Shown here: piece by piece, positions 5,776 through 32,438 of the stretch | How the letters are laid out: each line of letters begins with the position of its first letter | How positions within the stretch are numbered: the stretch's first letter is position 1 | DNA from: a virus | Lineage: Duplodnaviria > Heunggongvirae > Uroviricota > Caudoviricetes | Direction: 5' to 3' (one strand) | DNA: 32,438 bases | Virus record (IMG/VR): IMGVR_UViG_2534681773_000029 | Notes under the pieces: generated by a model | Told to the model about the DNA's origin: nothing | Seen by the model: the letters and a program-made list of their open reading frames with translations, nothing else | The model's database searches: none | Translations under genes and position numbers: made by a program

Positions 5776-5992
5776 GTAAAAATACAGCGTGATTTTATAT
5801 GTCTTTGAATGGATTATGCGAAGCACCTCTAAGGTAGATGAGGAGCAATAGCGTGTTGAATCAGAAGGCTAAATTGTATTGAATCGTTAGCATGTAATTG
5901 AAGGCAGCTATTTGATTCGAGTCATAAAAGAGCATCTATTTCGGTTAATAAAACCATTGCGAGTGACTTTATGTCGAAGCATAATTCATCTC

Positions 5993-6006
5993 GAGCGAAG
6001 TCTTGC
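5993..6006. repeat. 14-bp direct repeat GAGCGAAGTCTTGC, copy 1
   Basis: Exact match to 6257-6270; copy 1 sits just after a TTGCGA-N17-CATAAT promoter-like element (5957-5985). Confidence 0.7.
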
Positions 6007-6034
6007 TAGTCTTTCATCGGATTGATGACGGGCG

Positions 6035-6066
6035 CAAAAAAACCACCCTGGCAGGTGGTTTTTTTG
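6035..6066. terminator. Bidirectional intrinsic terminator (A-run, ACCACC-loop-GGTGGT hairpin, T7 run)
   Basis: aaaaaaaccaccctggcaggtggttttttt read directly; works on both strands. Confidence 0.6.
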
Positions 6067-6077
6067 TTTGAAGCATA

Positions 6078-6191
6078 CTAAAGAAAAATACTTACATGGA
6101 TATTACTGACGTTTACTGACAAACCACTCGGACTACCATATGGATAGCCAAAGAGGGCCAGAACGAGAATGCAGTAATAGCACTTCTTCAT
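6078..6191 (-). CDS. Candidate 37-aa hydrophobic peptide (MKKCYYCILVLALFGYPYGSPSGLSVNVSNIHVSIFL); possible type I toxin-like or small membrane protein
   Basis: ATG at 6191 preceded by AGGAGG; ends 12 nt before the terminator at 6035-6066; below the ORF-track length cutoff so hand-translated. Not a recognised family. Confidence 0.35.
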   Translation of the reverse strand: MKKCYYCILVLALFGYPYGSPSGLSVNVSNIHVSIFL

Positions 6192-6256
6192 ATCGCCTCC
6201 TGTAAGCAGAGGGCAATTTCCGCCGATATATGCGCTTCTAAGGCGGAGTGACTATT

Positions 6257-6270
6257 GAGCGAAGTCTTGC
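6257..6270. repeat. 14-bp direct repeat GAGCGAAGTCTTGC, copy 2 (in predicted 5' UTR of the small-peptide mRNA)
   Basis: Exact copy of 5993-6006; lies about 66 nt upstream of the peptide start on the minus strand. Confidence 0.7.
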
Positions 6271-6847
6271 CCTGAAATAATGCTCTGTTTAAACGCAAAG
6301 TGATCTGGCATATCACCGAACAGAGGACCTGAACAACACAACATATAGTATGTCGTTGTTTCTGGTTGCATTTTATGTTGTGTAATACTGGTTTTGCATC
6401 AAGGATGTTTGAGCTTTTTTTGATATAGCTCAAAGTAAAAAGCAGAGACTACGGATGATAAGGTCTTGAAAGCAATGTAAATTTTTTAAAGTTGTGAGTG
6501 GCTAGAAATGCACAGTTTCAATATGGCGGATTTAAACAAGTAATTAAAAATAGCGACATAAATTCCAATAAAATCATTAGGTTGCGTTTTCTGTGGAAAC
6601 TTCGGTGACTCTGAAATTTTCTTTTAGTGTCGCTGAGGTTTAACAACTCGCTGCGCAAGTAGTTAGTGTTTTTTTAACTCAATATTCTGATTTATAAGGT
6701 TTTTTATAAATCGTGGGCTGGTTGCGCGTATTCATCTCGTGTTATCAGCAAAGATAAGCTCTATATGCAGAACTGAATGCATATATGATGTCGAAAATGT
6801 TATGGGAAAACGTGGATTAGTGTTATAGTAATGGCTGAAAAACAGCC

Positions 6848-6876
6848 TTGACATAAAATAACAACTGTGATATGGC
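6848..6876 (+). promoter_or_regulatory. Possible promoter for the peptidase gene (TTGACA -35 at 6848-6853; weak -10 TATGGC after 17-nt spacer)
   Basis: Perfect -35 hexamer but poor -10; low confidence. Confidence 0.25.
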
Positions 6877-6912
6877 TGTGCATACTTAACTTTTTTAACG
6901 TAGGAGGCAACC

Positions 6913-7398
6913 ATGAGCTATGCAGCTAAAAAACTGCTTGACCGCTATTGGGATCGCCGACTACCTGTCGATCCGTTTAAGCTTGCTAAAGCGTGGGGTG
7001 CTCGTGTTGAAGCACTTGAGGAATCGGCTTATAACAACGATGGGTTAAGCGGTCTGGCTGTCATCAAAAAGGGTGTCCATAGGATTTATTTTGATTCTAG
7101 TGAACATTCTAATCGTCAACGTTTTACTGTTGCACACGAGTTAGGTCATCATGTGCTGGGGCATACCCAGGACGGAGAGTACCATCGGGATAATGTCGGG
7201 AATTATTCAACAGGTGCTCGTGATTATCGTGAGGTTGAAGCAAACAAGTTTGCTGCTGAGTTGTTAATGCCTGAGTCTGCTATACGTCAATTGGTATCCA
7301 GAGAAGGTATTGATAGCACTTTGAGATTAGCAAGCATCTTTAATGTATCAGAAGCCGCTATGCATTGGCGCTTAAAGAGCTTAGGAATGGCTTATTAA
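6913..7398 (+). CDS. ImmA/IrrE-family (M78-like) Zn metallopeptidase
   Basis: 161-aa ORF with AGGAGG SD; HEXXH motif (AHELGHHVLGH) and downstream EVEANKFAAELLMPE, the signature of ImmA/IrrE peptidases. No HTH partner gene adjacent. Confidence 0.8.
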   Translation: MSYAAKKLLDRYWDRRLPVDPFKLAKAWGARVEALEESAYNNDGLSGLAVIKKGVHRIYFDSSEHSNRQRFTVAHELGHHVLGHTQDGEYHRDNVGNYSTGARDYREVEANKFAAELLMPESAIRQLVSREGIDSTLRLASIFNVSEAAMHWRLKSLGMAY

Positions 7399-7423
7399 TT
7401 AGCCTTTAACTTTTAACCTGTTT

Positions 7424-7464
7424 AAAATCACCTTTACGTTTGTACATGTAAGGGTGATTTTTTT
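7424..7464 (+). terminator. Intrinsic terminator or attenuator downstream of peptidase gene
   Basis: Hairpin ATCACCTTTA / TAAGGGTGAT followed by T7, ending immediately before the ATG at 7465. Confidence 0.5.
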
Positions 7465-8064
7465 ATGGCTGATATTGATTTATCTGGACAGTCCCCAGAG
7501 CAAGGAACCACTCCTAAGGGCGATTTAGATCCTGATATCCTTATAAGGCGAGATAGACGGGATGGTATAGAGCGTAGAAGTATGCGATTAGTGCTCTCTG
7601 CCGTTGTGCTTTGTTTTGCTTGTACATTTCTATGGCAGGGGCTTAACTTTGCTTTGGCTGTTGGAAATGGCTTGCTGGAAGCGAAAAGCAGTATTGCCGC
7701 AGCGATAACACAAAAAGTAGATACACAAACTTGTGTTTCAGCAGAAAAATGTTCTGCTTTATCTTCGGATCCGAAGATGGCTGATGAGAGGATAACACCA
7801 TCTTCAGACACTAATAAAGTTAGAAAATCTATTTCTGGTTTATCCACCGATTGGTTATCGGCCAGTTCTCTAATAGCTATTGTTGCATTCATCCTTGGTG
7901 TGGGTTTAACTTTGCTTTTGACTCTTCTTAAATCAGCATTTCAACACCCGACAGATAAAGACTTTAGAACAAAGTCGACATCTAATACTATTGAGTTGGC
8001 CACGCCAATCAGTGAATTAATAATTGGTGTTCTGAATATAATTAAAGACAAACTATCTAAGTAA
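7465..8064 (+). CDS. Predicted membrane protein with two hydrophobic helices, unknown function
   Basis: 199-aa ORF; hydrophobic stretches RLVLSAVVLCFACTFLWQGLNFALAV and SSLIAIVAFILGVGLTLLLTLL; improbably long open frame for AT-rich DNA. Start uncertain: no good SD at 7465, internal Met at 7582. A minus-strand ORF 7434..7892 overlaps it. Confidence 0.4.
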   Translation: MADIDLSGQSPEQGTTPKGDLDPDILIRRDRRDGIERRSMRLVLSAVVLCFACTFLWQGLNFALAVGNGLLEAKSSIAAAITQKVDTQTCVSAEKCSALSSDPKMADERITPSSDTNKVRKSISGLSTDWLSASSLIAIVAFILGVGLTLLLTLLKSAFQHPTDKDFRTKSTSNTIELATPISELIIGVLNIIKDKLSK

Positions 8065-8106
8065 AGCATTAGTTGTGATTTTTTATTGGTTTTAGTGATA
8101 ATACAT

Positions 8107-8140
8107 CTCCAGTACTTATTGTTACTGGAGAGTATTTTTA
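8107..8140. terminator. Hairpin (CTCCAGTA / TACTGGAG) with T-rich tail between convergent genes
   Basis: Perfect 8-bp inverted repeat with 8-nt loop, followed by AGTATTTTTA. Confidence 0.4.
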
Positions 8141-8247
8141 GTCGTTTTATATTTTTAATGTTAGTGAATGATATTCACGAGAGTTCACGTTCGATGTGAT
8201 GTAATCGGGGGCGTTAACACCAAGAATCGCAACGAGTAATCGGCAAA

Positions 8248-9087
8248 TTAAAGCCTGCATTTGTTGTAATATGTCATCTCCATATTGATAATTGTTAATA
8301 GTGGTAAAGCCAAGTGGTTGACCATGAAACATAGCTTCATGAAAGTTTTCATTGCGGATGTTTGTAATGTTTTTTTGCCTGTAACCCATGATGGTCGTGG
8401 TATTCCATAAGTTTTGCAGATCCACTTCAAGCGCCTGGAGTGATTTAGAGTCTTTTCTGTACACTTGTTCTTTTCTGCCCATGTTAAAGCAAAGCAACTA
8501 TCCAGTGCCATATAAAGATACTGGAATTTTTCGAAGCTAAGGTATTGTGGGTTTTGGGATAAAAATAGTGCATGCACTATTGCTGCTATATTTATTGGTG
8601 CGTGTTTGGTTTTTGTCTCGCTAGACATGTATTTGAGTGCTAATTCTATAACCTCTTTTTCAGAGCACTTGACCAGAATAAAGTCAGTTAATTTGCTGGG
8701 TTTTATTGGGGTTGCGTCTAAAAAACCGGCATCAGTAGTTGTTAATCTTATCCCTTTGAAAAAAGACAGACACCACACAGCAAAATTGAGAGTTTCTAGT
8801 GAAGATGTATTTTTTAATTTTAGTGAGTGTGTTTTGGGTAAGCCAAATACTCGTTGGCTAAAAGGCATTGTGGATATGCCTCCATTGAGGTTATATACTT
8901 CTTGGTTTCCTGGGTATATCCAACCGTTAATAACATTTCTGTGATTGTTTATAAGATTTGTTTTTTCCGCTAGACCGGGTAAAGTAAGTAAAGAAAAATC
9001 ATCAGTTTCAACGTTAACTTCTACTGGATAGTATCCAAACTCAGCTTCAATATCATTGGATTGCTGTTCGTCAACTTTACCTTGCAT
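8248..9087 (-). CDS. Hypothetical protein of unknown family in cargo island; possibly frameshifted (see overlapping ORF 8147..8497)
   Basis: 279-aa minus-strand ORF; a second open frame continues to 8147. One extra A in the A7 run (plus-strand T7 at 8370-8376) would fuse them into about 313 aa. No recognisable catalytic motif. Confidence 0.45.
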   Translation of the reverse strand: MQGKVDEQQSNDIEAEFGYYPVEVNVETDDFSLLTLPGLAEKTNLINNHRNVINGWIYPGNQEVYNLNGGISTMPFSQRVFGLPKTHSLKLKNTSSLETLNFAVWCLSFFKGIRLTTTDAGFLDATPIKPSKLTDFILVKCSEKEVIELALKYMSSETKTKHAPINIAAIVHALFLSQNPQYLSFEKFQYLYMALDSCFALTWAEKNKCTEKTLNHSRRLKWICKTYGIPRPSWVTGKKTLQTSAMKTFMKLCFMVNHLALPLLTIINMEMTYYNKCRL

Positions 9088-9324
9088 ACATTGCTCCGGT
9101 CAAAAATAGGCTCGATAATTCTCGTAAGCCTATCATGTTCGCAAAGTATCCATACCTGTGGATTTTGTAAATTTAAGTTGATTTGTCATTAAATAAGCCG
9201 TTGCATGCAACAAGTGAATGTTTTTGCATGCGTCGGGGATGTCCGTTCAGGCTGCGTGCGGTCAGGACTGGTGCGGATCCATAGTATCTATGCAACTGCA
9301 TTAAAACCGCCCCATGAAGCGGGC

Positions 9325-9343
9325 GGGCGAGGCGGGGAAAGCA
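9325..9343. other. cos: cos site (19-nt cohesive-end sequence GGCGAGGCGGGGAAAGCAC)
   Basis: Exact match to the P2/P4 cohesive-end sequence as I recall it; lies in the expected place upstream of Q. Confidence 0.7.
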
Positions 9344-9486
9344 CTGCGCGCTGGCGGTGGTGCTGATTTTATTTTTTCAGCGTCTGAGCGCGTCGTGATG
9401 GCGTTTAGATTGTTCGCCGGGGCGTTGGTGTGTCTGCGGGCTGTTTTGTGCGGTGGTGAGCGTGTGAGGGCGTGATGGCGGGTTGT

Positions 9487-9508
9487 AAAAAAGCCGCCCG
9501 CAGGCGGC
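9487..9508 (-). terminator. Intrinsic terminator after Q (minus strand)
   Basis: GCCGCC-CGCA-GGCGGC hairpin with T6 on the minus strand, 6 nt past the Q stop. Confidence 0.5.
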
Positions 9509-9513
9509 GATGT

Positions 9514-10503
9514 TCAGCCGTTGTCAGTGTCCAGTGAGTAGTTTTTAAAGCGGATGACCTCCTGACCGAGCCAGCCGTTTATTTCCCGAATCCTGTCCTG
9601 TAACGGGATTAGCTCATTGCGGACAAAGACCTTTGCCACTTTCTCAATATCGCCCAGTGACCCGACGTTCTCCGGCTTGCCACCCATCAACTGAAAGGGG
9701 ATGCGGTGTGCGTCCAGCAGGTCAGCGGCGCTGGCTTTTTTGATATTAAAAAAATCGTCCTTCGTCGCCACTTCACTGAGCGGGATAATTTTAATGCCGT
9801 CGGCTTTCCCCTGCGGGGCATAGAGAAACAGGTTTTTAAAGTTGTTGCGGCCTTTCGACTTCACCATGTTTTCGCGAAGCATTTCGATATCGTTGCGATC
9901 CTGCACGGCATCGGTAACGTACATGATGTATCCGGCATGTGCGCCGTTTTCGTAATACTTGCGGCGGAACAGCGTGGCCGACTCATTCAGCCAGGCAGAG
10001 TTAAGGGCGCTGAGATATTCCGGCAGGCCATACAGCTCCTGATTAATATCCGGCTCCAGCAGGTGAAACACGGAGCCGGGCGTGAAAGGTGTCGGCTCGT
10101 TGAAGGACGGCACCCACCAGTAAACATCCTCCTCCACGCCACGACGGGTATATTTGGCCGGTGAGGTTTCCAGTCTGATGACCTTACCGGTGGTGCTGTA
10201 ACGCTTTTCCAGAAACGCATTACCGAACACCAGAAAATCCAGCACAAAGCGGCTGAAATCCTGCTGGGAAAGCCACGGGTGCGGGATAAACGTTGAGGCC
10301 AGAATATTACGTTTGACGTAAATCGGTGAGCTGTGATGCACGGCAGCACGCAGGCTTTTTGCCAGACCGGTAAAGCTGACCGGTGGCTCATACCATCTGC
10401 CGTTACTGATGCATTCGACGTAATCCAGAATGTCACGGCGGTCGAGTACCGGCACCGGCTCGCCAAAGGTGAATGCCTCCATTTTCGGGGCGCTGGCGGT
10501 CAT
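9514..10503 (-). CDS. Q: Portal protein gpQ
   Basis: 329-aa ORF matching P2 Q. A 15-codon ORF (10500..10547) starts at an ATG overlapping the P stop and would join in frame with one extra homopolymer base, giving 344 aa. Confidence 0.85.
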   Translation of the reverse strand: MTASAPKMEAFTFGEPVPVLDRRDILDYVECISNGRWYEPPVSFTGLAKSLRAAVHHSSPIYVKRNILASTFIPHPWLSQQDFSRFVLDFLVFGNAFLEKRYSTTGKVIRLETSPAKYTRRGVEEDVYWWVPSFNEPTPFTPGSVFHLLEPDINQELYGLPEYLSALNSAWLNESATLFRRKYYENGAHAGYIMYVTDAVQDRNDIEMLRENMVKSKGRNNFKNLFLYAPQGKADGIKIIPLSEVATKDDFFNIKKASAADLLDAHRIPFQLMGGKPENVGSLGDIEKVAKVFVRNELIPLQDRIREINGWLGQEVIRFKNYSLDTDNG

Positions 10504-10546
10504 TGTTTTTGCCGCTGGTCGCGGTGTTTTCCCTTTTTCTTGCTCA

Positions 10547-12319
10547 TCAGTAAAACTCCAGAATGGTGGATGTCAGCGGGGTGCTGATACCCGCGGTGAG
10601 TGGCTCATTTAACAGGGCATGCATGGTCGCCCAGGCGAGGTCGGCGTGGCTGGCTTCCTCGCTGCGGCTGGCCTCATAGGTGGCGCTGCGTCCGCTGCTG
10701 GTCATGGTCTTGCGGATAGCCATAAACGAGCTGGTGATGTCGGTGGCGCTGACGTCATATTCCAGACAGCCACGGCGAATAACGTCTTTTGCCTTGAGCA
10801 CCATTGCGGTTTTCATTTCCGGCGTGTAGCGGATATCGCGCGCGGCGGGATAGAACGAGCGCACGAGCTGGAACACGCCGACACCGAGGCCGGTGGCATC
10901 AATTCCGATGTATTCGACGTTGTATTTTTCGGTGAGTTTGCGGATGGATTCAGCCTGAGTGGCAAAGTCCATGCCTTTCCACTGGTGACGCTCAAGTATT
11001 CTGAATTTGCCACCGGCCACCACCGGCGGTGCCAGCACCACGCATCCGGCACTGTCGCCACGGTGTGACGGGTCGTAACCAATCCATACCGGGCGGGAGC
11101 CGAACGGATTCGCGGCAAACGGCGCATAGTCTTCCCATTCTTCCAGCGTGTCGACCATGCAGCGTTGCAGCTCCTCGAACGGGAACACCGACGCCTTGTC
11201 GTCAACAAATTCACACATGAACAGGTTTTTAAAATCGTCGGCGCTGTTTTCACGTTTGAGCTGCTCAATGTCGAACAGCGTGCAGCCGCCTTTCAGCGCG
11301 TCCTCAATGGTGACAATCTGCCGCCACTGGCCGTCCGCACAGAGAAGACCTCCGGCAAGGGCGTTATGACTGACGTCGATTTCCACGCGTTCGGCGGCGC
11401 TGGCGCGACCCCGGTTGAACAGTTCACCCGACCAGAACGGGTAGGCGTCGTGCGCCAGCGTGGACGGGGTGGAGAAATAGGTCGAGCGCAGGTGACTCTG
11501 TGAGGCCATACCTGATGCCACCTTACGCAGTACCTGAAAATTCGGGATCCAGAAAATCTCATCGACGTACAGGTCGCCGTTATGGCTCTGCGCGGTGTTG
11601 GAGTTGGTGCCGAGAAAAATCAGTTTTGCGCCGTTATTGCCCAGGACAATCGGGTCACCGGTCAGGTCAACGTCAACCAGCCGGGCAAAGGCGATGATGT
11701 ATTCGCGGAACACATACGCCTGCGTTTTACTGGCCGACAGAAAAATCTGGTTATGACCGGTTTTCAGGGCGCGCAGCAGCGCCTCGCGGGAAAAATAAAA
11801 CGTCGCGCCAATCTGGCGGGATTTCAGGATATCGCGGATGCGGTGCTCAAGCCCGGCGCGATACCAGTGCAACTGATATTCGAAAGACTGCTCAAAGAAA
11901 ATCTGCTCCAGCTTTTCGATGGCCTCGTCACTGAAAAAATTCTTTTTCGGTTTGCGACGCCCGCCCTTGTTGCGGTTAGCGACGTTCGGATTAAGGTCTG
12001 CCTCGTTGCCGGTCTGACTGTAACGGTTGACCCGTGCCAGTCGTTCAATCTGGCGTCCGAGCAGGTCAATTTCCTTGAAGTCACCGCCGGTTTTCTGCGG
12101 TTTGATGATGAGCTGGGTCAGCCTCGCTTCCAGACTCATTTCGACACGGCTGATGGGGGCAACGCTGTCCCAGCCGTCGCGCTGTTTCCAGCTCTGCACC
12201 GTCGGGCGTTTCATCTGCAACATGGCGGCAATCTGCGGCACGGAAAACCCCTGCCAGTACAGCAGCGCCGCCTGACGACGCGGATCGTGTAAAAGAGTGG
12301 TGTCTGTGGTGATGGTCAT
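10547..12319 (-). CDS. P: Terminase large subunit (ATPase) gpP
   Basis: ORF 10547..12349; ATG at 12319 (MTITTDTTLLHD) with GAGG SD gives 590 aa, the P2 P length. Confidence 0.9.
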   Translation of the reverse strand: MTITTDTTLLHDPRRQAALLYWQGFSVPQIAAMLQMKRPTVQSWKQRDGWDSVAPISRVEMSLEARLTQLIIKPQKTGGDFKEIDLLGRQIERLARVNRYSQTGNEADLNPNVANRNKGGRRKPKKNFFSDEAIEKLEQIFFEQSFEYQLHWYRAGLEHRIRDILKSRQIGATFYFSREALLRALKTGHNQIFLSASKTQAYVFREYIIAFARLVDVDLTGDPIVLGNNGAKLIFLGTNSNTAQSHNGDLYVDEIFWIPNFQVLRKVASGMASQSHLRSTYFSTPSTLAHDAYPFWSGELFNRGRASAAERVEIDVSHNALAGGLLCADGQWRQIVTIEDALKGGCTLFDIEQLKRENSADDFKNLFMCEFVDDKASVFPFEELQRCMVDTLEEWEDYAPFAANPFGSRPVWIGYDPSHRGDSAGCVVLAPPVVAGGKFRILERHQWKGMDFATQAESIRKLTEKYNVEYIGIDATGLGVGVFQLVRSFYPAARDIRYTPEMKTAMVLKAKDVIRRGCLEYDVSATDITSSFMAIRKTMTSSGRSATYEASRSEEASHADLAWATMHALLNEPLTAGISTPLTSTILEFY

Positions 12320-12492
12320 GAATACCTCGCCGTGATGAATACACGGCAAGGCTACTGAGTCGCGCCCCGCGATTCGCTAAGGTGCTGTTGTGTCAGTGAT
12401 AAGCCATCCGGGACTGATGGCGGAGGATGCGCATCGTCGGGAAACTGATGCCGACATGTGACTCCTCTAATCACTATTCAGGACTCCTGACA

Positions 12493-13347
12493 ATGGCAAA
12501 AAAAGCATCAAAATTCTTTCGTATCGGCGTTGAGGGTGACACCTGTGACGGGCGTGTCATCAGTGCGCAGGATATTCAGGAAATGGCCGAAACCTTTGAC
12601 CCGCGAGTCTATGGTTGCCGCATTAACCTGGAACATCTGCGCGGCATCCTGCCTGACGGCATTTTTAAACGTTATGGCGATGTGGTCGAACTGAAGGCCG
12701 AAAAGATTGATGACGATTCGGCGCTGAAAGGCAAATGGGCGCTGTTTGCGAAAATCACCCCGACCGATGACCTTATCGCGATGAACAAGGCCGCGCAGAA
12801 GGTCTACACCTCAATGGAAATTCAGCCGAACTTTGCCAATACCGGCAAATGTTATCTGGTGGGACTGGCCGTCACCGATGACCCGGCAAGCCTCGGTACG
12901 GAATACCTGGAATTCTGCCGCACGGCAAAACACAACCCCCTGAACCGCTTCAAATTAAGCCCTGAAAACCTGATTTCAGTGGCAACGCCTGTTGAGCTGG
13001 AATTTGAAGACCTGCCTGAAACCGTGTTCACCGCCCTGACCGAAAAGGTGAAATCCATTTTTGGCCGCAAACAGGCCAGCGATGACGCCCGTCTGAATGA
13101 CGTGCATGAAGCGGTGACCGCTGTCGCTGAGCATGTGCAGGAAAAACTGAGCGCCACTGAGCAGCGCCTTGCTGAGATGGAAACCGCCTTTTCCGCACTT
13201 AAGCAGGATGTGACTGACAGGGCGGATGAAACCAGTCAGGCATTCACCCGCCTGAAAAACAGTCTCGACCACACCGAAAGTCTGACCCAGCAGCGCCGCA
13301 GTAAAGCCACCGGCGGTGGCGGTGACGCCCTGATGACGAACTGCTGA
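12493..13347 (+). CDS. O: Capsid scaffolding protein gpO
   Basis: ORF 12427..13347; ATG at 12493 (MAKKASKFFRIGVEGDTCDG) gives 284 aa, matching P2 O. Confidence 0.9.
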   Translation: MAKKASKFFRIGVEGDTCDGRVISAQDIQEMAETFDPRVYGCRINLEHLRGILPDGIFKRYGDVVELKAEKIDDDSALKGKWALFAKITPTDDLIAMNKAAQKVYTSMEIQPNFANTGKCYLVGLAVTDDPASLGTEYLEFCRTAKHNPLNRFKLSPENLISVATPVELEFEDLPETVFTALTEKVKSIFGRKQASDDARLNDVHEAVTAVAEHVQEKLSATEQRLAEMETAFSALKQDVTDRADETSQAFTRLKNSLDHTESLTQQRRSKATGGGGDALMTNC

Positions 13348-13405
13348 CCGGTGTCAGTCAGTCCGGGAAAACCTTCACGATTAACCCTTAATTTCAGGAA
13401 AAACT

Positions 13406-14479
13406 ATGCGCCAGGAAACCCGCTTTAAATTTAATGCCTACCTGTCCCGTGTTGCCGAACTGAACGGCATCGACGCCGGTGATGTGTCGAAAAAATTCAC
13501 CGTTGAACCGTCGGTCACCCAGACCCTGATGAACACCATGCAGGAGTCCTCTGATTTTCTGACCCGCATCAACATTGTGCCGGTCAGCGAAATGAAAGGG
13601 GAAAAAATTGGTATTGGTGTCACCGGCTCCATCGCCAGCACCACCGACACCGCCGGTGGCACCGAGCGTCAGCCGAAGGACTTCTCGAAGCTGGCGTCCA
13701 GTAAGTACGAATGCGACCAGATTAACTTCGATTTTTATATCCGCTACAAAACGCTGGACCTGTGGGCGCGTTATCAGGATTTCCAGCTCCGTGTCCGTAA
13801 CGCCATTATCAAACGTCAGTCCCTTGATTTAATCATGGCCGGTTTTAACGGCGTGAAGCGTGCCGAAACCTCTGACCGCAGCAGCAATCCGATGCTGCAG
13901 GATGTGGCGGTCGGCTGGCTGCAGAAATACCGCAATGAAGCCCCGGCGCGCGTGATGAGCAAGGTTACTGACGAGGAAGGTCACACCACCTCTGAGGTCA
14001 TCCGCGTGGGTAAGGGCGGTGATTATGCCAGCCTCGATGCACTGGTGATGGATGCGACCAACAACCTGATTGAGCCGTGGTATCAGGAAGACCCTGACCT
14101 TGTGGTGATTGTGGGGCGTCAGTTACTGGCGGACAAGTATTTCCCCATCGTTAACAAGGAGCAGGACAACAGCGAAATGCTGGCCGCTGACGTCATCATC
14201 AGCCAGAAACGCATCGGTAACCTACCAGCGGTACGCGTCCCGTACTTCCCGGCGGATGCGATGCTCATCACGAAGCTGGAAAACCTGTCCATCTACTACA
14301 TGGATGACAGCCATCGCCGCGTGATTGAGGAAAACCCGAAACTCGACCGCGTGGAGAACTACGAGTCAATGAACATTGATTACGTGGTGGAAGACTACGC
14401 CGCCGGTTGTCTGGTGGAAAAAATTAAGGTCGGTGATTTCTCCACACTGGCTAAAGCGACCGCAGAGCCGGGAGCGTAA
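13406..14479 (+). CDS. N: Major capsid protein gpN
   Basis: 357-aa ORF, matches P2 N in length and sequence recollection. Confidence 0.9.
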   Translation: MRQETRFKFNAYLSRVAELNGIDAGDVSKKFTVEPSVTQTLMNTMQESSDFLTRINIVPVSEMKGEKIGIGVTGSIASTTDTAGGTERQPKDFSKLASSKYECDQINFDFYIRYKTLDLWARYQDFQLRVRNAIIKRQSLDLIMAGFNGVKRAETSDRSSNPMLQDVAVGWLQKYRNEAPARVMSKVTDEEGHTTSEVIRVGKGGDYASLDALVMDATNNLIEPWYQEDPDLVVIVGRQLLADKYFPIVNKEQDNSEMLAADVIISQKRIGNLPAVRVPYFPADAMLITKLENLSIYYMDDSHRRVIEENPKLDRVENYESMNIDYVVEDYAAGCLVEKIKVGDFSTLAKATAEPGA

Positions 14480-14482
14480 CCG

Positions 14483-15226
14483 ATGACGAGTCCCGCACAG
14501 CGCCACATGATGCGGGTCTCGGCAGCGATGACCGCGCAGCGGGAAGCCGCCCCGCTGCGACATGCAACTGTCTATGAGCAGATGCTGGTCAAGCTGGCCG
14601 CAGACCAGCGCACACTGAAAGCGATTTATTCAAAAGAGCTGAAGGCCGCGAAAAAACGCGAACTGCTGCCGTTCTGGTTGCCGTGGGTGAACGGCGTGCT
14701 GGAGCAGGGCAAAGGTGCACAGGATGACATTCTGATGACGGTCATGCTGTGGCGTCTGGATACCGGCGATATTGCCGGTGCGCTGGAGATTGCCCGTTAT
14801 GCCCTGAAGTACGGTCTGACCATGCCGGGGAAACACCGCCGCACCCCGCCGTACATGTTCACCGAGGAGGTGGCGCTTGCGGCCATGCGTGCTCACGCTG
14901 CCGGTGAGTCTGTGGATACCCGCCTGCTGACGGAGACCCTTGAACTGACCGCCACGGCTGACATGCCTGATGAAGTGCGCGCAAAGCTGCACAAAATCAT
15001 CGGTCTGTTTCTGCGTGACGGTGGTGATGCCGCCGGTGCGCTGGCTCACCTGCAACGTGCGACACAGCTCGACTGTCAGGCAGGCGTCAAAAAAGAGATT
15101 GAACGACTGGAGCGGGAGCTGAAACCGAAGCCGGAGCCGCAGCCCAAAGCGGCCACCCGTACCCTGCGTAAGACCCGGAGCGTGACACCGGCAAAACGTG
15201 GACGCCCGAAAAAGAAAGCCAGTTAA
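14483..15226 (+). CDS. M: Terminase small/endonuclease subunit gpM
   Basis: 247-aa ORF following N; basic C-terminal tail; matches P2 M. Confidence 0.85.
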   Translation: MTSPAQRHMMRVSAAMTAQREAAPLRHATVYEQMLVKLAADQRTLKAIYSKELKAAKKRELLPFWLPWVNGVLEQGKGAQDDILMTVMLWRLDTGDIAGALEIARYALKYGLTMPGKHRRTPPYMFTEEVALAAMRAHAAGESVDTRLLTETLELTATADMPDEVRAKLHKIIGLFLRDGGDAAGALAHLQRATQLDCQAGVKKEIERLERELKPKPEPQPKAATRTLRKTRSVTPAKRGRPKKKAS

Positions 15227-15325
15227 CAACCGAATGCGCCCCGCGCCAGGGCGGCACGCCGGTCAGTGAGGGTGAATCACCTGACACTGCACCGGCGTCC
15301 ACCGCCCGACTTTTCAGAGGTAGTC

Positions 15326-15835
15326 ATGATGACGCTGATTATTCCGCGAAAGGAGGCTCCCGTGTCCGGTGAGGGTACGGTGGTCATCCCGCAACCGGCA
15401 GGCGACGAGCCGGTGATTAAAAACACGTTCTTTTTTCCCGATATCGACCCGAAGCGCGTCCGGGAACGTATGCGCCTTGAGCAGACTGTCGCCCCCGCCC
15501 GTCTGCGTGAGGCCATCAAGTCAGGCATGGCGGAGACGAATGCGGAGCTGTACGAGTACCGCGAACAGAAAATTGCTGCCGGTTTTTCGCGTCTGGCTGA
15601 CGTCCCGGCGGACGACATCGACGGTGAAAGCATCAAAGTTTTTTACTACGAGCGCGCCGTGTGTGCGATGGCGACCGCGTCGCTTTATGAGCGTTATCGC
15701 GGCGTGGATGCCAGTGCGAAAGGCGACAAGAAGGCCGACAGCATTGACAGCACCATTGATGAACTGTGGCGGGATATGCGCTGGGCAGTGGCGCGCATCC
15801 AGGACAAGCCGCGCTGCATCGTGAGTCAAATCTGA
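15326..15835 (+). CDS. L: Head completion protein gpL
   Basis: ORF 15266..15835; ATG at 15326 (MMTLIIPRKE) with GAGG SD gives 169 aa as in P2 L. Confidence 0.85.
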   Translation: MMTLIIPRKEAPVSGEGTVVIPQPAGDEPVIKNTFFFPDIDPKRVRERMRLEQTVAPARLREAIKSGMAETNAELYEYREQKIAAGFSRLADVPADDIDGESIKVFYYERAVCAMATASLYERYRGVDASAKGDKKADSIDSTIDELWRDMRWAVARIQDKPRCIVSQI

Positions 15836-17818: not shown

Positions 17819-18248
17819 TGCCGTCACGGTGCTGAAAACCAGTCCAGAGATGCTTCGGATATTCGTGGATAACGGGAGTATTGCCTCCACGCTGGCGACG
17901 TCGCTGTCGTTCGAAAAGCGTTACACGCTCAATGTGATTGTGACCGACTTTACCGGTGATTTTGACCTGCTCATCGTGCCGGTGTTGGCGTGGCTGCGGG
18001 AAAATCAGCCCGACATCATGACCACTGACGAAGGCCAGAAAAAGGGCTTCACGTTTTATGCAGACATCAACAATGACAGCAGCTTTGATATCAGCATCAG
18101 CCTGATGCTGACCGAGCGCACGCTGGTCAGTGAGGTGGACGGCGCACTGCATGTGAAGAACATCCCGGAACCTCCGCCGCCGGAGCCGGTCACCCGCCCG
18201 ATGGAGCTGTATATCAATGGCGAACTGGTGAGCAAGTGGGATGAATGA
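17781..18248 (+). CDS. R: Tail completion protein gpR
   Basis: 155-aa ORF, syntenic with P2 R. Confidence 0.85.
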   Translation: MLKPDSLRRALTDAVTVLKTSPEMLRIFVDNGSIASTLATSLSFEKRYTLNVIVTDFTGDFDLLIVPVLAWLRENQPDIMTTDEGQKKGFTFYADINNDSSFDISISLMLTERTLVSEVDGALHVKNIPEPPPPEPVTRPMELYINGELVSKWDE

Positions 18249-21256: not shown

Positions 21257-22611
21257 CAGTGAAATACTACGCCATTCTGACTAATCAGGGCGCGGCACGG
21301 CTGGCTAACGCGACGATGCTCGGCAGTAAGCTGAATCTGACGCAAATGGCCGTTGGTGATGCGAATGGTGTCTTGCCGACACCAGACCCGGCACAGACAA
21401 AACTGATTAACCAGAAACGCATCGCGCCGCTGAATCTTCTGAGTGTTGACCCGAACAACCAGAGCCAGATTATTGCGGAGCAAATCATCCCTGAGAACGA
21501 GGGCGGATTCTGGATCCGTGAGATTGGGCTTTATGATGATGAAGGCGTACTCATTGCGGTGGCGAACTGCCCGGAAACGTACAAACCGCAGTTGCAGGAA
21601 GGCAGTGGTCGTACCCAGACTATCCGCATGATTCTGGTTGTCACGAATACCGAAGCTATTACGCTGAAAATCGACCCGTCGGTGGTACTGGCGACCCGTA
21701 AATACGTGGATGATGAAGTCCTGGAATTAAGGCTGTATGTGGATGACCAGATGAGAAAACACATTGCCGCACAGGACCCTCATACCCAGTATGCACAGAA
21801 ACATAATCCGACATTTACCGGAGAACCAAAAGCGCCGACGCCTGCCGCAGGAAATAACACCACGCGGATTGCGACCACTGAGTTTGTTCAGGCCGCTATT
21901 ACCGCTCTGATTAACGGCGCGCCAGCCACGCTGGACACACTGAAAGAAATTGCCGCAGCCATTAACAATGACCCGAAATTCAGCGCCACCATTAACAATG
22001 CGCTGTCAGGTAAGCAGCCACTGGATGAGACGCTAACTCATTTGAGTGGGAAGGATGTTGCCGGTCTTCTCGCATACCTTGGTTTGGGAGAAGGTGCTCC
22101 AGCTATTGGCGTTCCGTTCTTCTGGCCGTCCGCAGCAATGCCAGATACCGTAATCGATAGCTGGTCCAGCATGGTGTTTTTGAAGTTCAACGGCGCGAAA
22201 TTCTCTGCCACTGATTACCCTGTGCTGGCGAAAGTGTTTCCGGCGCTGGCATTACCTGACGCACGCGGTGATTTCATTCGTATCTGGGATGACGGGCGCG
22301 GGATTGATGTCGGACGTACCCTACTTTCAGGGCAATCACACACAATTATGGATCATGCACACAATATGGAATTGTGGACGGGGGACGGGCTTGCCGCAGG
22401 AAGTGCACGGGAAGGAGTAAACCCAGGAATACTGGCTACATATGGTGACGGGGGAATAGTTAAAACGGACGAACCCGGTCTTAGGGTGCCTTCCTCACTA
22501 CGAGCTCTTAGCTCGCGTAGTGTTAAACGTTATGGTGAAATTAGTGGAAATGTAGGTACAGAAACCCGTCCACGAAATATTGCATTTAACTTTCTGGTGA
22601 GGGCTAAATAA
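21253..22611 (+). CDS. H: Tail fibre protein gpH (constant N-terminal part plus the variable C-terminal cassette in its current orientation)
   Basis: 452-aa ORF; the crossover site at 22067-22092 lies in frame within it, separating constant and invertible parts. Confidence 0.85.
   Translation: MTVKYYAILTNQGAARLANATMLGSKLNLTQMAVGDANGVLPTPDPAQTKLINQKRIAPLNLLSVDPNNQSQIIAEQIIPENEGGFWIREIGLYDDEGVLIAVANCPETYKPQLQEGSGRTQTIRMILVVTNTEAITLKIDPSVVLATRKYVDDEVLELRLYVDDQMRKHIAAQDPHTQYAQKHNPTFTGEPKAPTPAAGNNTTRIATTEFVQAAITALINGAPATLDTLKEIAAAINNDPKFSATINNALSGKQPLDETLTHLSGKDVAGLLAYLGLGEGAPAIGVPFFWPSAAMPDTVIDSWSSMVFLKFNGAKFSATDYPVLAKVFPALALPDARGDFIRIWDDGRGIDVGRTLLSGQSHTIMDHAHNMELWTGDGLAAGSAREGVNPGILATYGDGGIVKTDEPGLRVPSSLRALSSRSVKRYGEISGNVGTETRPRNIAFNFLVRAK
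22067..22092. repeat. 26-bp invertase crossover site, left (TTCTCGCATACCTTGGTTTGGGAGAA), inside H
   Basis: Imperfect dyad; its right half is the reverse complement of the left half of the site at 23964-23989 (15-bp exact inverted repeat TTGGTTTGGGAGAAG). Confidence 0.75.
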
Positions 22612-23204
22612 TGAAACCTGTTTTTGATGAAAATGGGCTGGCTACAGTACCGGGTAATATGCGTTGTTTTTATTATGAGGCAGTTACGTATGAATATACT
22701 GGCTGGTCTGATGAATATATTAATACTGGCGTAAGTATGCCCGCCTGTTCCACTGGTATTGACCCGGGCGAATACATTCCGGGGAAAGTGGCAGTATTTA
22801 CGGGTAAGGGATGGAGCCATGAAGAAGACCACCGCAATGAGACTGTTTACTCAATCGAAAATGGCGCAGCTGTTACAGTGGATTATATCGGTGCCATCAA
22901 AGACGGTTATGTCACGCTTTCACCGTTAACGCCATACGATAAATGGGATGGTGAGAAATGGGTGACAGATACTGAGGCACAGCATAGTGCCGCAGTAGAC
23001 GCAGCAGAAGCACAGCGCCAGTCGCTGATTGATGCTGCAATGGCTTCCATCAGTCTGATTCAACTGAAATTACAGGCCGGACGGAAGCTGACGCAGGCAG
23101 AAACAACCCGACTTAACGCCGTGCTGGATTACATTGACGCGGTGACGGTAACAGATACCAGCACCGCGCCGGATGTCATCTGGCCTGAACTGCCGGAGGC
23201 GTAG
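22611..23204 (+). CDS. G: Tail fibre assembly protein gpG (cassette in expressed orientation)
   Basis: 197-aa ORF after H; C-terminal motif (DYIDAVTVTDTSTAPDVIWPELP) also present in the minus-strand G' copy. Confidence 0.8.
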   Translation: MKPVFDENGLATVPGNMRCFYYEAVTYEYTGWSDEYINTGVSMPACSTGIDPGEYIPGKVAVFTGKGWSHEEDHRNETVYSIENGAAVTVDYIGAIKDGYVTLSPLTPYDKWDGEKWVTDTEAQHSAAVDAAEAQRQSLIDAAMASISLIQLKLQAGRKLTQAETTRLNAVLDYIDAVTVTDTSTAPDVIWPELPEA

Positions 23205-23616
23205 GCCATTCAATATCTGGCGCACCGGAAGTATCGACCAGTTCCAGTGCGTCCAGATAATCCAGCCACAAATTATATTGCGCCAGTTCCTCACCTTTCA
23301 GGCGACCAATCGCCGCTTTACCAGGCCATTGCTTACTGTTTATGTATTCGTTGACCTGATTAATCAATTGCTGCTTTTCCAGTTCGGCTGCGGCAATTTG
23401 TTCCTCATGAGTTGGCGGTGGAATATCAATCCATGCAGGCATTCCGTCGATGACACCTCTGTATTTTCCTTCTGGTGCTTCCTTCATAAATTCGGCGGCA
23501 ACAGTGTCGTCAATTTCGATTCCATCATCGGGCCATTCGCCGGATTCCTGATAAGCGATTTTAAGCTCCACAGGGAAAAACGCATTTTTATCGGCGCTGA
23601 AAATATATTTCTGCAT
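23176..23616 (-). CDS. Alternative tail fibre assembly protein (G'), silent orientation
   Basis: 146-aa minus-strand ORF convergent with G, 3' ends overlapping; tail-fibre-chaperone-like C-terminus (DYLDALELVDTSGAPDIEWPTPP). Confidence 0.75.
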   Translation of the reverse strand: MQKYIFSADKNAFFPVELKIAYQESGEWPDDGIEIDDTVAAEFMKEAPEGKYRGVIDGMPAWIDIPPPTHEEQIAAAELEKQQLINQVNEYINSKQWPGKAAIGRLKGEELAQYNLWLDYLDALELVDTSGAPDIEWPTPPAVQAR

Positions 23617-23618
23617 TT

Positions 23619-23977
23619 CTACCGTCCTATCGAAATATAACTGAATCTGTATTGCTGTGAGATATCACTGGTTGCCACACGCCACGCTGAATTACTGATA
23701 TGTTCAAAATTTACAGACAAAACCTGCGGGGCAGGATTCGACGGGTCTGACTGAACGGCATCAGACATAACACTGACTGAAACCATCGGCTGATTAGGGA
23801 ATGGTATAGGGAAGTGTCCACTGATAAAGCGGGTCGAGTTTCCTGCAAAAGTGCCAAACTGAACAATATATCCACCTGGTAGCCTGAACCATCCCGAACC
23901 AGAAGCGAATGCTCCCATATCCGGTATCTGATTATCTCCTGTGCCCACATTCCGTTTTGCCGCTTCTCCCAAACCAA
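23619..23977 (-). CDS. Alternative tail fibre C-terminal cassette (Hc'), promoterless until inversion
   Basis: Minus-strand frame 23619..24017 shares the in-frame junction GLGE with H at the crossover site; would fuse to the constant H N-terminus after inversion. Confidence 0.7.
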
Positions 23978-23989
23978 CGTTTATGAAAA
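23964..23989. repeat. 26-bp invertase crossover site, right (TTCTCCCAAACCAACGTTTATGAAAA)
   Basis: Inverted relative to the 22067-22092 site; sits about 55 bp upstream of the invertase gene; hix/gix/cix-like dyad with central AA. Confidence 0.75.
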
Positions 23990-24044
23990 TGCAGAGATAA
24001 CGGGCAACTGGCATCATCTCCGGTTTTTATTCAGGGGGATGCTC

Positions 24045-24638
24045 ATGCTTATTGGCTATGTACGCGTGTCAACAAATGACCAGAACACGGAATTGCAGCG
24101 TAACGCGCTGGAGTGTGCAGGATGTGAGCTGATTTTTGAGGATAAAATCAGCGGCACGAAGTCCGACCGACCGGGACTGAAAAAACTGCTCAGAACATTA
24201 TCAGCAGGTGACACTCTGGTGGTCTGGAAGCTGGACAGGCTGGGGCGTAGTATGCGGCATCTGGTCATTCTGGTTGAGGAACTGCGCGAACGCGGCGTTA
24301 ATTTTCGCAGCCTGACGGATGCCATTGATACCAGCACGCCGATGGGACGTTTTTTCTTTCATGTGATGGGTGCCCTGGCTGAAATGGAACGAGAACTCAT
24401 TGTCGAGCGGACTCGCGCCGGACTGGAAGCGGCCAGAGCCAAAGGTCGTATTGGTGGCAGACGTCCGAAACTCACCGCGAGTGAGTGGGAGCAGGTCGGA
24501 CGGTTGCTGGCTCCGGGGGAATCTCGTCAACGCGTGGCACTGATTTTTGATATTGGCCTGTCCACGCTCTATAAAAAATTTCCCTCATCAGCGACAAAGA
24601 ATAAATTGTGTCATCCCTTAGCCAACCGGGACAAATAG
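24045..24638 (+). CDS. Serine DNA invertase, Gin/Hin/Cin/Pin family
   Basis: N-terminus MLIGYVRVSTNDQNTELQRNAL with catalytic serine context and C-terminal HTH region; start at 24045 preferred (GGGGG SD) over 24039. Confidence 0.9.
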   Translation: MLIGYVRVSTNDQNTELQRNALECAGCELIFEDKISGTKSDRPGLKKLLRTLSAGDTLVVWKLDRLGRSMRHLVILVEELRERGVNFRSLTDAIDTSTPMGRFFFHVMGALAEMERELIVERTRAGLEAARAKGRIGGRRPKLTASEWEQVGRLLAPGESRQRVALIFDIGLSTLYKKFPSSATKNKLCHPLANRDK

Positions 24639-24697
24639 CCTGACATCTCCGGCACAACTGAAAATATCACTCACCCATTAACCACGGAGTTAAACGG

Positions 24698-29357: not shown

Positions 29358-29836
29358 ATGATGCTCGCGTTAGGTATGTTTGTTTTTATGCGCCAGACGC
29401 TGCCACACCAGACCATGCAGCGTGAATCAGATTATCGCTGGCCGTCAAATTCCCGTATCGGCAAACGGGATGCCTTTCAGTTTCTCGGTGTTGGCGAGGA
29501 AAATATCACGCTTGCCGGTGTGCTTTATCCAGAGCTGACCGGCGGCAAGCTGACGATGACCACGCTCAGGCTGATGGCTGAGGAAGGCCGGGCGTGGCCG
29601 TTGCTGGATGGCACCGGCATGATTTACGGCATGTATGTCATCAGCAGGGTGAGTGAAACAGGGAGTATTTTTTTGCAGACGGCACACCCCGGAAAATTGA
29701 TTTTACGCTGTCGCTCACCCGCGTTGATGAATCACTGGCCGCGCTTTATGGCGATATCGGTAAACAGGCGGAATCGCTCATCGGTAAGGCTGGCAGTATG
29801 GCGACTAAATTCACGGATATGACGGGGGCGGGATAA
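29358..29836 (+). pseudogene. U: Tail protein gpU, disrupted by a frameshift in a T7 homopolymer (29668-29674)
   Basis: Frame from 29358 runs into Arg/Ser-rich sequence and stops at 29822; an adjacent frame (29657..29836) encodes protein-like FADGTPRKIDFTLSLTRVDESL... and ends TAATG overlapping D. One extra T restores 159 aa. Confidence 0.6.
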
Positions 29837-31535: not shown

Positions 31536-32438
31536 ATGAATCAATCTTATGGACGGCTGGTCAGTCGGGCGGCGATTGCTGCGACGGCGATGGCTTCGTT
31601 GCTATTGCTGATTAAAATTTTTGCATGGTGGTATACCGGGTCGGTGAGTATTCTCGCCGCGCTGGTGGATTCGCTGGTGGATATCGGCGCGTCGTTGACG
31701 AATTTACTGGTGGTGCGATATTCCCTGCAACCTGCCGACGATAATCACTCGTTTGGTCACGGTAAAGCAGAGTCCCTCGCGGCGCTGGCGCAAAGTATGT
31801 TTATCTCCGGTTCGGCACTATTCCTGTTTTTGACGGGTATTCAACATCTGATATCTCCAACACCGATGACAGATCCAGGCGTCGGGGTTATCGTGACAAT
31901 TGTGGCGCTAATTTGTACGATTATCCTTGTCTCGTTTCAGCGTTGGGTGGTGCGCCGGACGCAAAGCCAGGCGGTGCGGGCTGATATGCTACATTACCAG
32001 TCTGATGTTATGATGAACGGCGCAATTCTGCTGGCGCTGGGGTTGTCCTGGTACGGCTGGCATCGCGCCGATGCTCTGTTTGCATTGGGAATCGGCATCT
32101 ATATTTTATATAGCGCGTTACGCATGGGATATGAGGCGGTACAGTCATTACTGGATCGCGCATTGCCTGATGAGGAACGGCAAGAAATTATTGATATCGT
32201 GACTTCCTGGCCGGGTGTTAGCGGCGCTCACGATCTTCGCACGCGGCAGTCAGGGCCGACCCGCTTTATTCAGATTCATTTGGAAATGGAAGACTCTCTG
32301 CCTTTGGTTCAGGCACATATGGTGGCGGATCAGGTAGAGCAGGCTATTTTACGGCGTTTTCCGGGATCGGATGTAATTATCCATCAGGACCCCTGTTCCG
32401 TCGTACCCAGGGAGGGTAAACGGTCTATGCTTTCATAA
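31536..32438 (+). CDS. fieF: Cation-diffusion-facilitator Fe/Zn efflux transporter FieF (YiiP)
   Basis: 300-aa product [36 protein letters not shown]... recognised as enterobacterial FieF; ATG at 31536 with GGGAG SD (track start 31518 is a TTG extension). Confidence 0.9.

Follow-up and report, generated by a model that had tools for sequence, protein, structure and literature searches.

The window, by which we mean the whole stretch of 32,438 nucleotides analysed here, is an integrated P2-type (Peduovirus) prophage in an E. coli clone, with the gene order int...A, cargo, Q-P, O-N-M-L..., ogr and then a host gene. Q lies downstream of P in one operon, and the features of their junction are collected in Table 1. 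The P stop codon TGA (10549-10547, minus strand) overlaps an ATG (10547-10545) as TGATG. The first-pass annotation had read a 15-codon ORF opening at this ATG directly from the sequence, and this ORF is indeed there; its TGA (10502-10500), which had been placed one nucleotide before the Q start, in fact overlaps the ATG of the 329-aa portal (10503-10501) as ATGA. The readable portal ORF begins 44 nt past the P stop, while the start codon of a P2-family portal gene is expected to overlap this stop. Its homology to gpQ extends across the portal fold (tblastn identity = 98.2% over aa 3-343 of P2 gpQ, aligned in one frame from 10542 to 9520), and the exact 329-aa product is recorded as a member of Pfam PF04860 (Phage_portal). 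The GGAG motif is invariant in an alignment of the window with P2, L-413C, E. coli AZ159 and APEC O1, and no Shine-Dalgarno motif was found before Met16, the first residue of the readable ORF.

Table 1 Features of the P-Q junction and run-length sites elsewhere in the prophage (positions of the window)
Feature	Position	Strand	Description
Terminase large subunit gene P	10547-12319	minus	590 aa, intact; tblastn 99.8% to P2 gpP, single frame
GGAG Shine-Dalgarno motif	10556-10559	minus	8 nt 5' of the true Q start codon; invariant in alignment
15-codon leader ORF, MSKKKGKHRDQRQKQ and stop	10547-10500	minus	Out of the Q frame; codons 1-5 are the true Q start
A5 run, Q codons 4-5 (site of the deficit)	10534-10538	minus (T5 on plus)	A6 in relatives, AAG AAA AAA GGG
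Orphaned Q codons 6-15 (GKTPRPAAKT)	10504-10533	minus	Q frame open, no start codon
Portal ORF Q', 329 aa	9514-10503	minus	Starts at Met16 of the full-length protein; 98% identity to P2 gpQ; Pfam Phage_portal
Second homopolymer deficit (site 8369)	8370-8376	minus	T7 in the window, T8 in DAJXQS/ACAROW
T7 run in tail gene U (29358-29822)	29668-29674	plus	C lost from TTTTCTTT

The true Q start at the overlap with P is out of frame because of a 1-nt deficit. It had been proposed from the sequence that Q lacks its first 15 codons for this reason, and the comparison with relatives bears this out: the plus-strand runs are those originally described (T4 at 10527-10530, C3 at 10531-10533, T5 at 10534-10538), and the T5 run is a T6 run in relatives. 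On the coding strand, P2, L-413C, AZ159 and APEC O1 all have A6 in the alignment where the window has A5. In AZ159 and APEC O1 this base is the only difference from the window between 10300 and 10800 (99.8% identity), and the gap is placed at 10533/10534 against seven further contigs (L029, L031, L171, L175, L176, L178 and L180). When one base is read twice after codon 5, the product (MSKKKGKTPRPAAKTMTASAPK...) is identical to a 344-aa protein (P0016) whose final 329 residues are the window ORF. This repaired portal is the APEC O1/AZ159 allele and is present on 350 contigs. The suggested fusion of MSKKKGKTPRPAAKT to MTASAPK... accordingly exists as a portal of 344 aa whose start codon lies in the TGATG junction with P. 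The P2 Q length, which had been given as 344 aa, is correct (NP_046757.1).

The N-terminal alignment that had been put forward as a check was carried out with P2, L-413C, 186, PSP3 and phiCTX. All five keep a basic tag before the internal Met (a Val in phiCTX), and none of them starts Q at that position. The tag, MSK(K/R)(K/R)..., precedes a (K/R)xEAFTFG core in P2, AZ159, 186, PSP3 and phiCTX; its conservation spans P2 to 186, PSP3 and phiCTX (50-79% identity) and speaks for its importance. The window ORF has no such tag, and one added base restores it. The exact A5 junction sequence is absent from the 73-75 phage-collection records. As for the fate of this segment, Rishovd et al. are said to have reported in 1994 that 26 residues are taken off P2 gpQ. 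The portal of the P2 virion is Q*, whose atomic model begins at residue 27 (bioRxiv 10.64898/2026.09.14.750843), and gpN, gpO and gpQ are cleaved in maturation, presumably by gpO (PMC7552001). The 15 lost residues are within the 26-residue propeptide cleaved from the mature P2 portal, if its boundary is taken from the start of the model and from the reported removal of 26 residues.

The distribution of the deficit was followed among the clone-mates of the prophage, which were found through its exact M protein, as the exact P allele is too common (26,576 index blocks). In this lineage, A5 is limited to the window, AIGY01000051.1 and the Logan contigs of SRR096435 and SRR096436, and SNP 17985 (T versus C) splits these carriers into the window and SRR096435 on one side and AIGY01 and SRR096436 on the other. 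The A6 assemblies of the lineage are newer and 1-5 SNPs away from the window over 12-20 kb. The 6-mer is present in the same-lineage contigs L175, L176, L178 and L180. DAJXQS010000024.1, compared with window positions 4485-25226, differs only by two SNPs (5523 and 17985) and in the homopolymer runs of the junction and of 8369, and it has A6 and a 344-aa Q, as do ACAROW010000035.1, ABSTDG010000012.1 and the Logan assembly of SRR29259184. At least four A6 contigs were checked directly, and 10-13 further A6 places of the lineage were grouped with them as similar. The window is identical neither to AIGY01000051.1, from which it differs in the length of the run at 6059 and at SNP 17985, nor to DAJXQS010000024.1, given the A6 of the latter.

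Homopolymer noise is evident in the A5 datasets: a -1 at 6059 is private to AIGY01, two others, at 6482 and 9748, are private to SRR096436, and the Logan contigs of SRR096435 and SRR096436 are both interrupted at the 6059 run. Together with the deficit at 8369, all these run-length discrepancies go in the direction of an undercall. Likewise, the indels that separate the window from L175, L176, L178 and L180 are all deficits of the window (8369 and the junction), and the branch that carries A5 has these two homopolymer deficits and zero SNPs in about 20 kb. The read data behind A5 look like pyrosequencing-era reads of about 2010-11.

In complete genomes of E. coli, about 99.7% of 1,774 places have A6 (-1 allele in 5/1,774), and IMG/VR holds at least 120 A6 records versus 3 with A5. 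A5 is a rare minority allele, and it occurs on at least four SNP backgrounds. Among the fetched loci, the neighboring Q/P/O/N genes have additional -1 frameshifts in 11/28 cases with A5 and in 8/145 with A6 (odds ratio = 11, p = 9e-6; 9/23 A5 loci after deduplication, p = 4e-5); those of the A5 loci fall at the runs 12507, 11934 and 9748. Even sibling "complete" genomes conflict at the junction, which reads A5G3 in CP121426 and CP121427 and A6G2 in CP121419. The junction could have been a mutational hotspot or a tolerated site, an idea that was rejected: the -1 allele is not significantly less frequent in equal-length control runs (0/420 for an A6 within Q and 1/872 for a T6 within P, together 1/1,292; Fisher p = 0.41), so that no enrichment of -1 at the junction can be claimed. 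The exact 329-aa product is present on 31 contigs, some of them from Salmonella. An argument that A5 must be real as it occurs in ordinary short-read surveillance assemblies was dropped, because the cases of a rarer 329-aa variant proved to be contig-edge truncations in NCBI (L187, L189) or, in Logan, to come with split neighbouring genes.

Two other sites in the prophage are relevant to the interpretation. The frameshifted product of the tail gene U has exact matches in independent assemblies and runs (NCBI, Logan, ENA), and this frameshift is genuine and inherited in the prophage lineage; purifying selection on its virion genes is therefore already relaxed. Because of the deficit at 8369, the cargo gene (8248-9087) encodes 279 aa in place of 313; among the contigs of this lineage, this deficit has the same dataset distribution as the one in Q. 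The 279-aa form is also found in L029 and L031, members of a different lineage (85 SNPs away) that have no other frame-breaking indel, so this site is genuinely polymorphic. In the window itself, no other frame-breaking indel was found in Q, P, O or N.

In the recorded sequence, which is one A short in the A6 run, codons 1-5 of Q enter a 15-codon dead-end frame, and gene calling resorts to Met16 with 329 aa. The most likely interpretation is that the reads or the consensus lack a base that the DNA has. In that case, Q would be an ordinary 344-codon gene whose start lies in the TGATG junction with P. The base would have been lost during the sequencing or assembly of the strain, whose actual DNA would make normal gpQ. 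An artefact of this kind should not recur when the same clone is assembled independently, and A5 is indeed absent from L175, L176, L178 and L180; it should also come with other run-length discrepancies in the same datasets, which here are all undercalls. We consider it probable that A5 is such a homopolymer undercall and that the real DNA would have A6. Nevertheless, A5 is common to two datasets that differ at SNP 17985, so that a random error would need to have recurred, or the error would need to be systematic. Moreover, the co-distributed deficit at 8369 is truly polymorphic elsewhere, and under the relaxed selection indicated by the U frameshift a true loss of the base could have occurred. 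A real, recent slippage from A6 to A5, fixed in a small sub-clone that is represented by the window and AIGY01 and whose protein names indicate E. coli DEC11 strains, in a prophage already in decay, with a portal made from Met16, is possible, if somewhat doubtful. Full-length gpQ would then no longer be the main product, and the Met16 portal, synthesized by termination-reinitiation at the ATGA after the leader, would lack 15 of the 26 residues of a propeptide that is removed in any case; since Q* begins at residue 27, the mature portal would stay unchanged. The arrangement of TGATG, 15 codons and ATGA has the classical geometry of translational coupling, the presence of A5 in two datasets one SNP apart is what inheritance from a common ancestor predicts, the lineage already carries a real lesion in an essential tail gene, and the window's Q, P, O and N are otherwise in frame. 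Yet such a mutation requires a branch with two homopolymer indels and zero substitutions, in datasets that are demonstrably noisy at homopolymers, and A5 calls generally go with indel-rich assemblies. The A6 of at least four directly checked contigs and of the 10-13 grouped ones, the missing Shine-Dalgarno motif before Met16 and the conservation of the basic tag from P2 to phiCTX also speak against it.

If A5 is real, it might still allow the synthesis of the complete protein. A_AAG, read by the single tRNA-Lys of E. coli, is a shift-prone motif known from dnaX and IS elements. Relative to the leader, Q lies in the -1 frame, and a slip of one base back on AAA-AAG yields exactly MSKKKGKTPRPAAKT..., so that -1 slippage on AAG AAA AAG (G_AAA_AAG) could make the 344-aa gpQ in addition to the product from Met16. 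This would be a regulated means of expressing, at a low level, a portal of which only 12 copies per virion are required. Functional recoding of this type is nevertheless very hard to credit. The heptamer is in phase, but its first position is non-canonical; no stimulatory RNA structure was detected downstream of the slip site (MFE = -31.5 kcal/mol versus a shuffle mean of -33.3 kcal/mol, z = 0.49), 134/200 shuffles folding at least as well; and GGAG lies 17 nt 5' of the P-site codon AAA, as compared to a stimulatory spacing of about 10 nt in dnaX. Neither is the A5 arrangement conserved, as roughly 0.3% of the prophage copies in E. coli carry it, on scattered backgrounds and in association with poor assemblies, and its 5/1,774 in complete genomes is not significantly above the control runs. 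A programmed frameshift was thus rejected for want of both structure and conservation. Alternatively, A5 could be real in the sub-clone and silent or leaky, with reinitiation at ATGA giving a portal whose 11-residue stub is cleaved to normal Q* and a minority of -1 slips on AAA-AAG giving wild-type gpQ, a combination that we regard as improbable. Were it true, the basic tag conserved at the N-terminus of P2-family portals would be dispensable and, considering also the U lesion, it would suggest that single-base losses within runs are intrinsically leaky in phage late genes.

With the undercall as the favored explanation, the junction is mainly a point of quality control, as the record leads to a 329-aa "portal" or to a pseudogene call. 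RefSeq handles identical cases in both ways: some are annotated as "phage portal protein" with 329 aa, others are pseudogenes labelled "missing N-terminus". The same, probably spurious 329-aa product is deposited on dozens of contigs. The Q start should be taken as unverified when the prophage is judged intact or defective or when portal alignments are built; the biologically meaningful damage in this prophage is the U frameshift and not the start of Q. A real deficit would amount to a natural experiment, on a small scale, on whether the P2 portal needs its cleaved N-terminal tag.

The closest known systems are P2 gpQ (NP_046757.1), to which the window ORF is 98% identical and with which it shares the gene order, the overlap of the P stop and the Q start codon in TGATG, and the GGAG motif, and the APEC O1 "Phage protein Q" (A0A0H2Z0G1; WP_000038201.1), whose residues 16-344 are the window ORF (100%). 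In contrast to both, the window is one A short in codons 4-5 and residues 1-15 are not in frame. With respect to the maturation of P2 gpQ to Q* (h6), the 15 missing residues belong to the N-terminal segment that is absent from the virion portal, although the predicted Met16 product would carry only an 11-residue stub. The deficit also resembles the homopolymer undercalls of pyrosequencing and nanopore assemblies, as a single base is missing from a 6-mer in certain datasets only, together with other -1 run errors and in strong association with indel-rich assemblies, but the A5 of the window is common to two related datasets, unlike a purely random error. Finally, the programmed -1 frameshift of P2 E/E' (T_TTT_TTG) resembles both lesions, as the one in Q leaves an in-phase, slippery-like lysine motif and the one in U recreates the very heptamer of the annotated E/E' site, also in phase. 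Unlike E/E', the Q and U sites are not conserved and have no stimulatory element, and their slippery motifs are by-products of the loss of a base within a run, not evolved signals.

In the window, the portal gene Q is an ordinary P2 portal gene that is one base short in a homopolymer at codons 4-5, and it is not a novel type of feature. The first-pass annotation had described a 15-codon ORF whose ATG overlaps the stop of P, the terminase large-subunit gene, as well as T4, C3 and T5 runs at plus-strand 10527-10538. Both are present as described, but the TGA of the ORF, which had been placed one nucleotide short of the Q start, overlaps the ATG of the 329-aa portal ORF (ATGA). A megablast of window 10300-10800 found matches in 88 phage and 1,645 E. 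coli records, the listed relatives having 502 bases versus the 501 of the query. The nucleotide alignment of the P/Q junction reads AAG AAA AAA GGG in P2, L-413C, AZ159 and APEC O1 versus AAG AAA AAG GG in the window, and its gap reduces a coding-strand run of six A (A6) to five (A5; plus-strand T5 at 10534-10538). This is the one-nucleotide deficit that had been proposed to cost Q its first 15 codons. Apart from this run, AZ159 and APEC O1 are identical to the window over 501 bases. Reading one base again after codon 5 gives MSKKKGKTPRPAAKTMTASAPK..., and the repaired product is exactly P0016, the 344-aa portal of APEC O1 and AZ159, which is recorded on 350 contigs and whose residues 16-344 are the 329-aa ORF of the window. 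The P2 Q protein also has 344 aa, the length given in the first-pass annotation. The proposed reconstruction is therefore right in all details.

Features of the window discussed in the text
Feature	Position	Strand	Details
Terminase large-subunit gene P	10547-12319	minus	stop TGA 10549-10547
ATG overlapping the P stop as TGATG	10547-10545	minus	GGAG 8 nt upstream
15-codon ORF MSKKKGKHRDQRQKQ	ATG 10547-10545 to TGA 10502-10500	minus	
329-aa portal ORF	ATG 10503-10501, end 9514	minus	
Frameshifted essential tail gene U	29358-29822	plus	T7 run 29668-29674; C of TTTTCTTT lost
AT-rich cargo gene adjoining Q	8248-9087	minus	run 8370-8376 (position 8369 in comparisons)
Variable cargo hotspot	about 5800-9500		between replication gene A and Q

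Prophage contigs of the same lineage were fetched using the exact M protein of the window as a clone-specific marker. Sequences similar to the DAJXQS contig were found in 10-13 more places and grouped with it. The window corresponds to neither AIGY01 nor DAJXQS, its match being SRR096435. Position 17985 is a private SNP of the window (T versus C in all other contigs of the lineage), and the SRR096435 and SRR096436 Logan contigs both end at the 6059 run.

Run lengths and other differences in contigs of the window's lineage
Sequence	Junction run (coding strand)	Run at 8369 (plus strand)	Other differences from the window
Window	A5	T7	reference
Logan SRR096435	A5	T7	0 over 6060-15412
AIGY01000051.1	A5	T7	SNP 17985; private undercall 6059
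Logan SRR096436	A5	T7	SNP 17985; private undercalls 6482, 9748
DAJXQS010000024.1	A6	T8	SNPs 5523, 17985 (over 4485-25226)
ACAROW010000035.1	A6	T8	SNP 17985
ABSTDG010000012.1	A6	cargo differs, run not comparable	5 SNPs
Logan SRR29259184	A6	outside coverage	3 SNPs

A5 is rare in wider collections. A 60-mer spanning the run found 1,774 places in 5,426 complete E. coli genomes: four are exact A5 copies, ETEC1730 has A5 with one SNP and the remainder have A6, aligning with a one-base gap. Among IMG/VR viral contigs, 3 have A5 and at least 120 have A6, while the 73-75 matching records of the phage collection include no exact A5 match (60/60 listed rows are A6 or full length). The 10 places listed with the exact P allele of the window (26,576 index blocks) all encode a Q of 339-344 aa whose start lies at the P stop, and none has the A5/329-aa form. 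RefSeq labels A5 copies either as a 329-aa 'phage portal protein' or as a pseudogene 'missing N-terminus'. A5 occurs on at least four SNP backgrounds, so the allele arose, or was called, more than once; its frequency is not significantly higher than that of -1 alleles at two equal-length control runs in Q (0/420) and P (1/872; Fisher p = 0.41).

When further frame-breaking indels were counted in the neighbouring Q, P, O and N of each fetched locus spanning the junction, at least one was found in 11 of 28 A5 loci (9/23 without duplicate contigs) versus 8 of 145 A6 loci (odds ratio 11, p = 9e-6; 4e-5 deduplicated). These indels map to long runs elsewhere (12507, 11934, 9748), sibling 'complete' genomes conflict at the junction stretch (A5G3 versus A6G2) and a second 329-aa variant is either truncated by a contig edge or a neighbour of split genes. 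The 329-aa portal calls are therefore largely a signature of homopolymer-error-prone assemblies. In other assemblies, the A-rich stretch of Q codons 1-15 accumulates run-length discrepancies: loci L009 and L014 have CAAAAAAATG in place of the longer CAAAAACAATG, GGG becomes GG within the 45-nt leader region in L027, and a C-to-A change there creates an A8 run (CAAAAAAAATG) in L006, L034 and L035. Short-read contigs often start a few bases from the junction or from Met16 (L181, L187, L189), which produces complete-looking 329-aa calls that are in fact contig-edge truncations and makes the short form look more frequent than it is. One possible cause of these breaks is divergence points among multiple P2-like prophages per genome (median one copy, maximum three, by the megablast of 10300-10800).

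According to a tblastn of all 42 P2 proteins, the shared genes are intact in the window except Q and U. The P2 genes orf30 and fun(Z) are absent. The U product has 154 aa versus 159 aa. The exact 154-aa product also occurs in GCA_026221475.1 (DAJXQS010000024.1), Logan ERR162636 and SRR096435, an ENA metagenome contig and E. coli DEC11D-named proteins, and the wild-type product in at least 1,000 contigs. The presence of the frameshifted product in independent data shows that the U lesion is genuine and inherited, and the prophage is probably tail-defective. The same test gives the opposite answer for Q, which has A6 in the DAJXQS, ACAROW, ABSTDG and SRR29259184 contigs. The deletion in U changes ATT TTC TTT G (window 29666-29675) to ATT TTT TTG, creating an in-phase heptamer, T_TTT_TTG, that shares sequence and phase with the annotated E/E' -1 frameshift site of P2 (GGT TTT TTG, P2 19678-19684). 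A -1 slip there would restore U with one F-to-L change, in which case the lesion could be leaky.

The missing Q base may have been dropped from A6 during the sequencing of an ordinary portal gene. We consider such an artefact probable, if far from certain, because A5 is limited to a few old homopolymer-noisy datasets in a near-identical lineage, co-distributes with a second run deficit, defines a branch without any substitution and generally follows indel-rich assemblies. A real sub-clone mutation, trivial and recent, in a prophage already damaged in U is a less probable but serious alternative. Two datasets distinguished by a SNP have A5 in common, and the U frameshift in the same prophage is real, so that selection on virion genes is relaxed. 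Moreover, the co-distributed 8369 deficit concerns a genuinely polymorphic site: the coding-strand run is A7 in the window (279 aa) versus A8 in DAJXQS and ACAROW (313 aa), and both lengths are found in different lineages, with the 279-aa form also present in contigs of another lineage that otherwise lack frame-breaking indels. This run may be a truly hypervariable stretch of a hotspot gene.

If A5 were real, the lost residues 1-15 would fall inside the N-terminal segment of the P2 portal that, according to a preprint (bioRxiv 10.64898/2026.09.14.750843), is missing from the virion portal. Judging from the sequence, the geometry of TGATG, 15 codons and ATGA would allow termination-reinitiation at Met16, and a -1 slip on AAA-AAG would give back wild-type gpQ. 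A designed device is disfavored by the lack of a Shine-Dalgarno motif ahead of Met16 in the window, of supported RNA structure at the junction (z = 0.49) and of conservation. The alignment of P2-family portal N-termini, a comparison already proposed in the first-pass annotation, reveals a basic tag, MSK(K/R)(K/R), kept in 186, PSP3 and phiCTX at identities as low as 50%, and its conservation suggests that it is probably functional. Since the tag is kept and phiCTX has Val at the position of Met16, functional relatives do not use the internal Met as an alternative start; a Q starting there, which would have spoken against a lost N-terminus, was found in none of these three phages.

Within the cargo hotspot, a 161-aa Peptidase_M78 protein matches PADLOC capP (E = 1e-30) and also RmrA models; neither the 279/313-aa protein nor a 199-aa protein matches anything in Pfam or PADLOC. 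In other prophages with the same P/Q, this position is occupied by different cargo: retron Ec48, GmrSD, protein kinases, AAA_15/21 ATPases, Fic, a DEAD helicase or a methyltransferase, and the A-Q interval looks like a hotspot for defence genes. The integrase, repressor and cox share only 43-52% identity with their P2 counterparts, indicating that the P2 late-gene backbone here carries a different module for immunity and integration. The prophage is integrated (window ends 1-1750 and 31536-32438); the right end enters a host cation-efflux gene (fieF-like), beyond which DAJXQS has pfkA, sbp, cdh and tpiA. The tail-fibre region (about 22600-24640) is unlike P2 H/G: its Caudo_TAP and fibre C-terminal ORFs lie in opposite orientations, and a resolvase/HTH_7 gene (about 24045-24638) comes after them. 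This arrangement resembles the invertible host-range segments of the Gin/Cin type.
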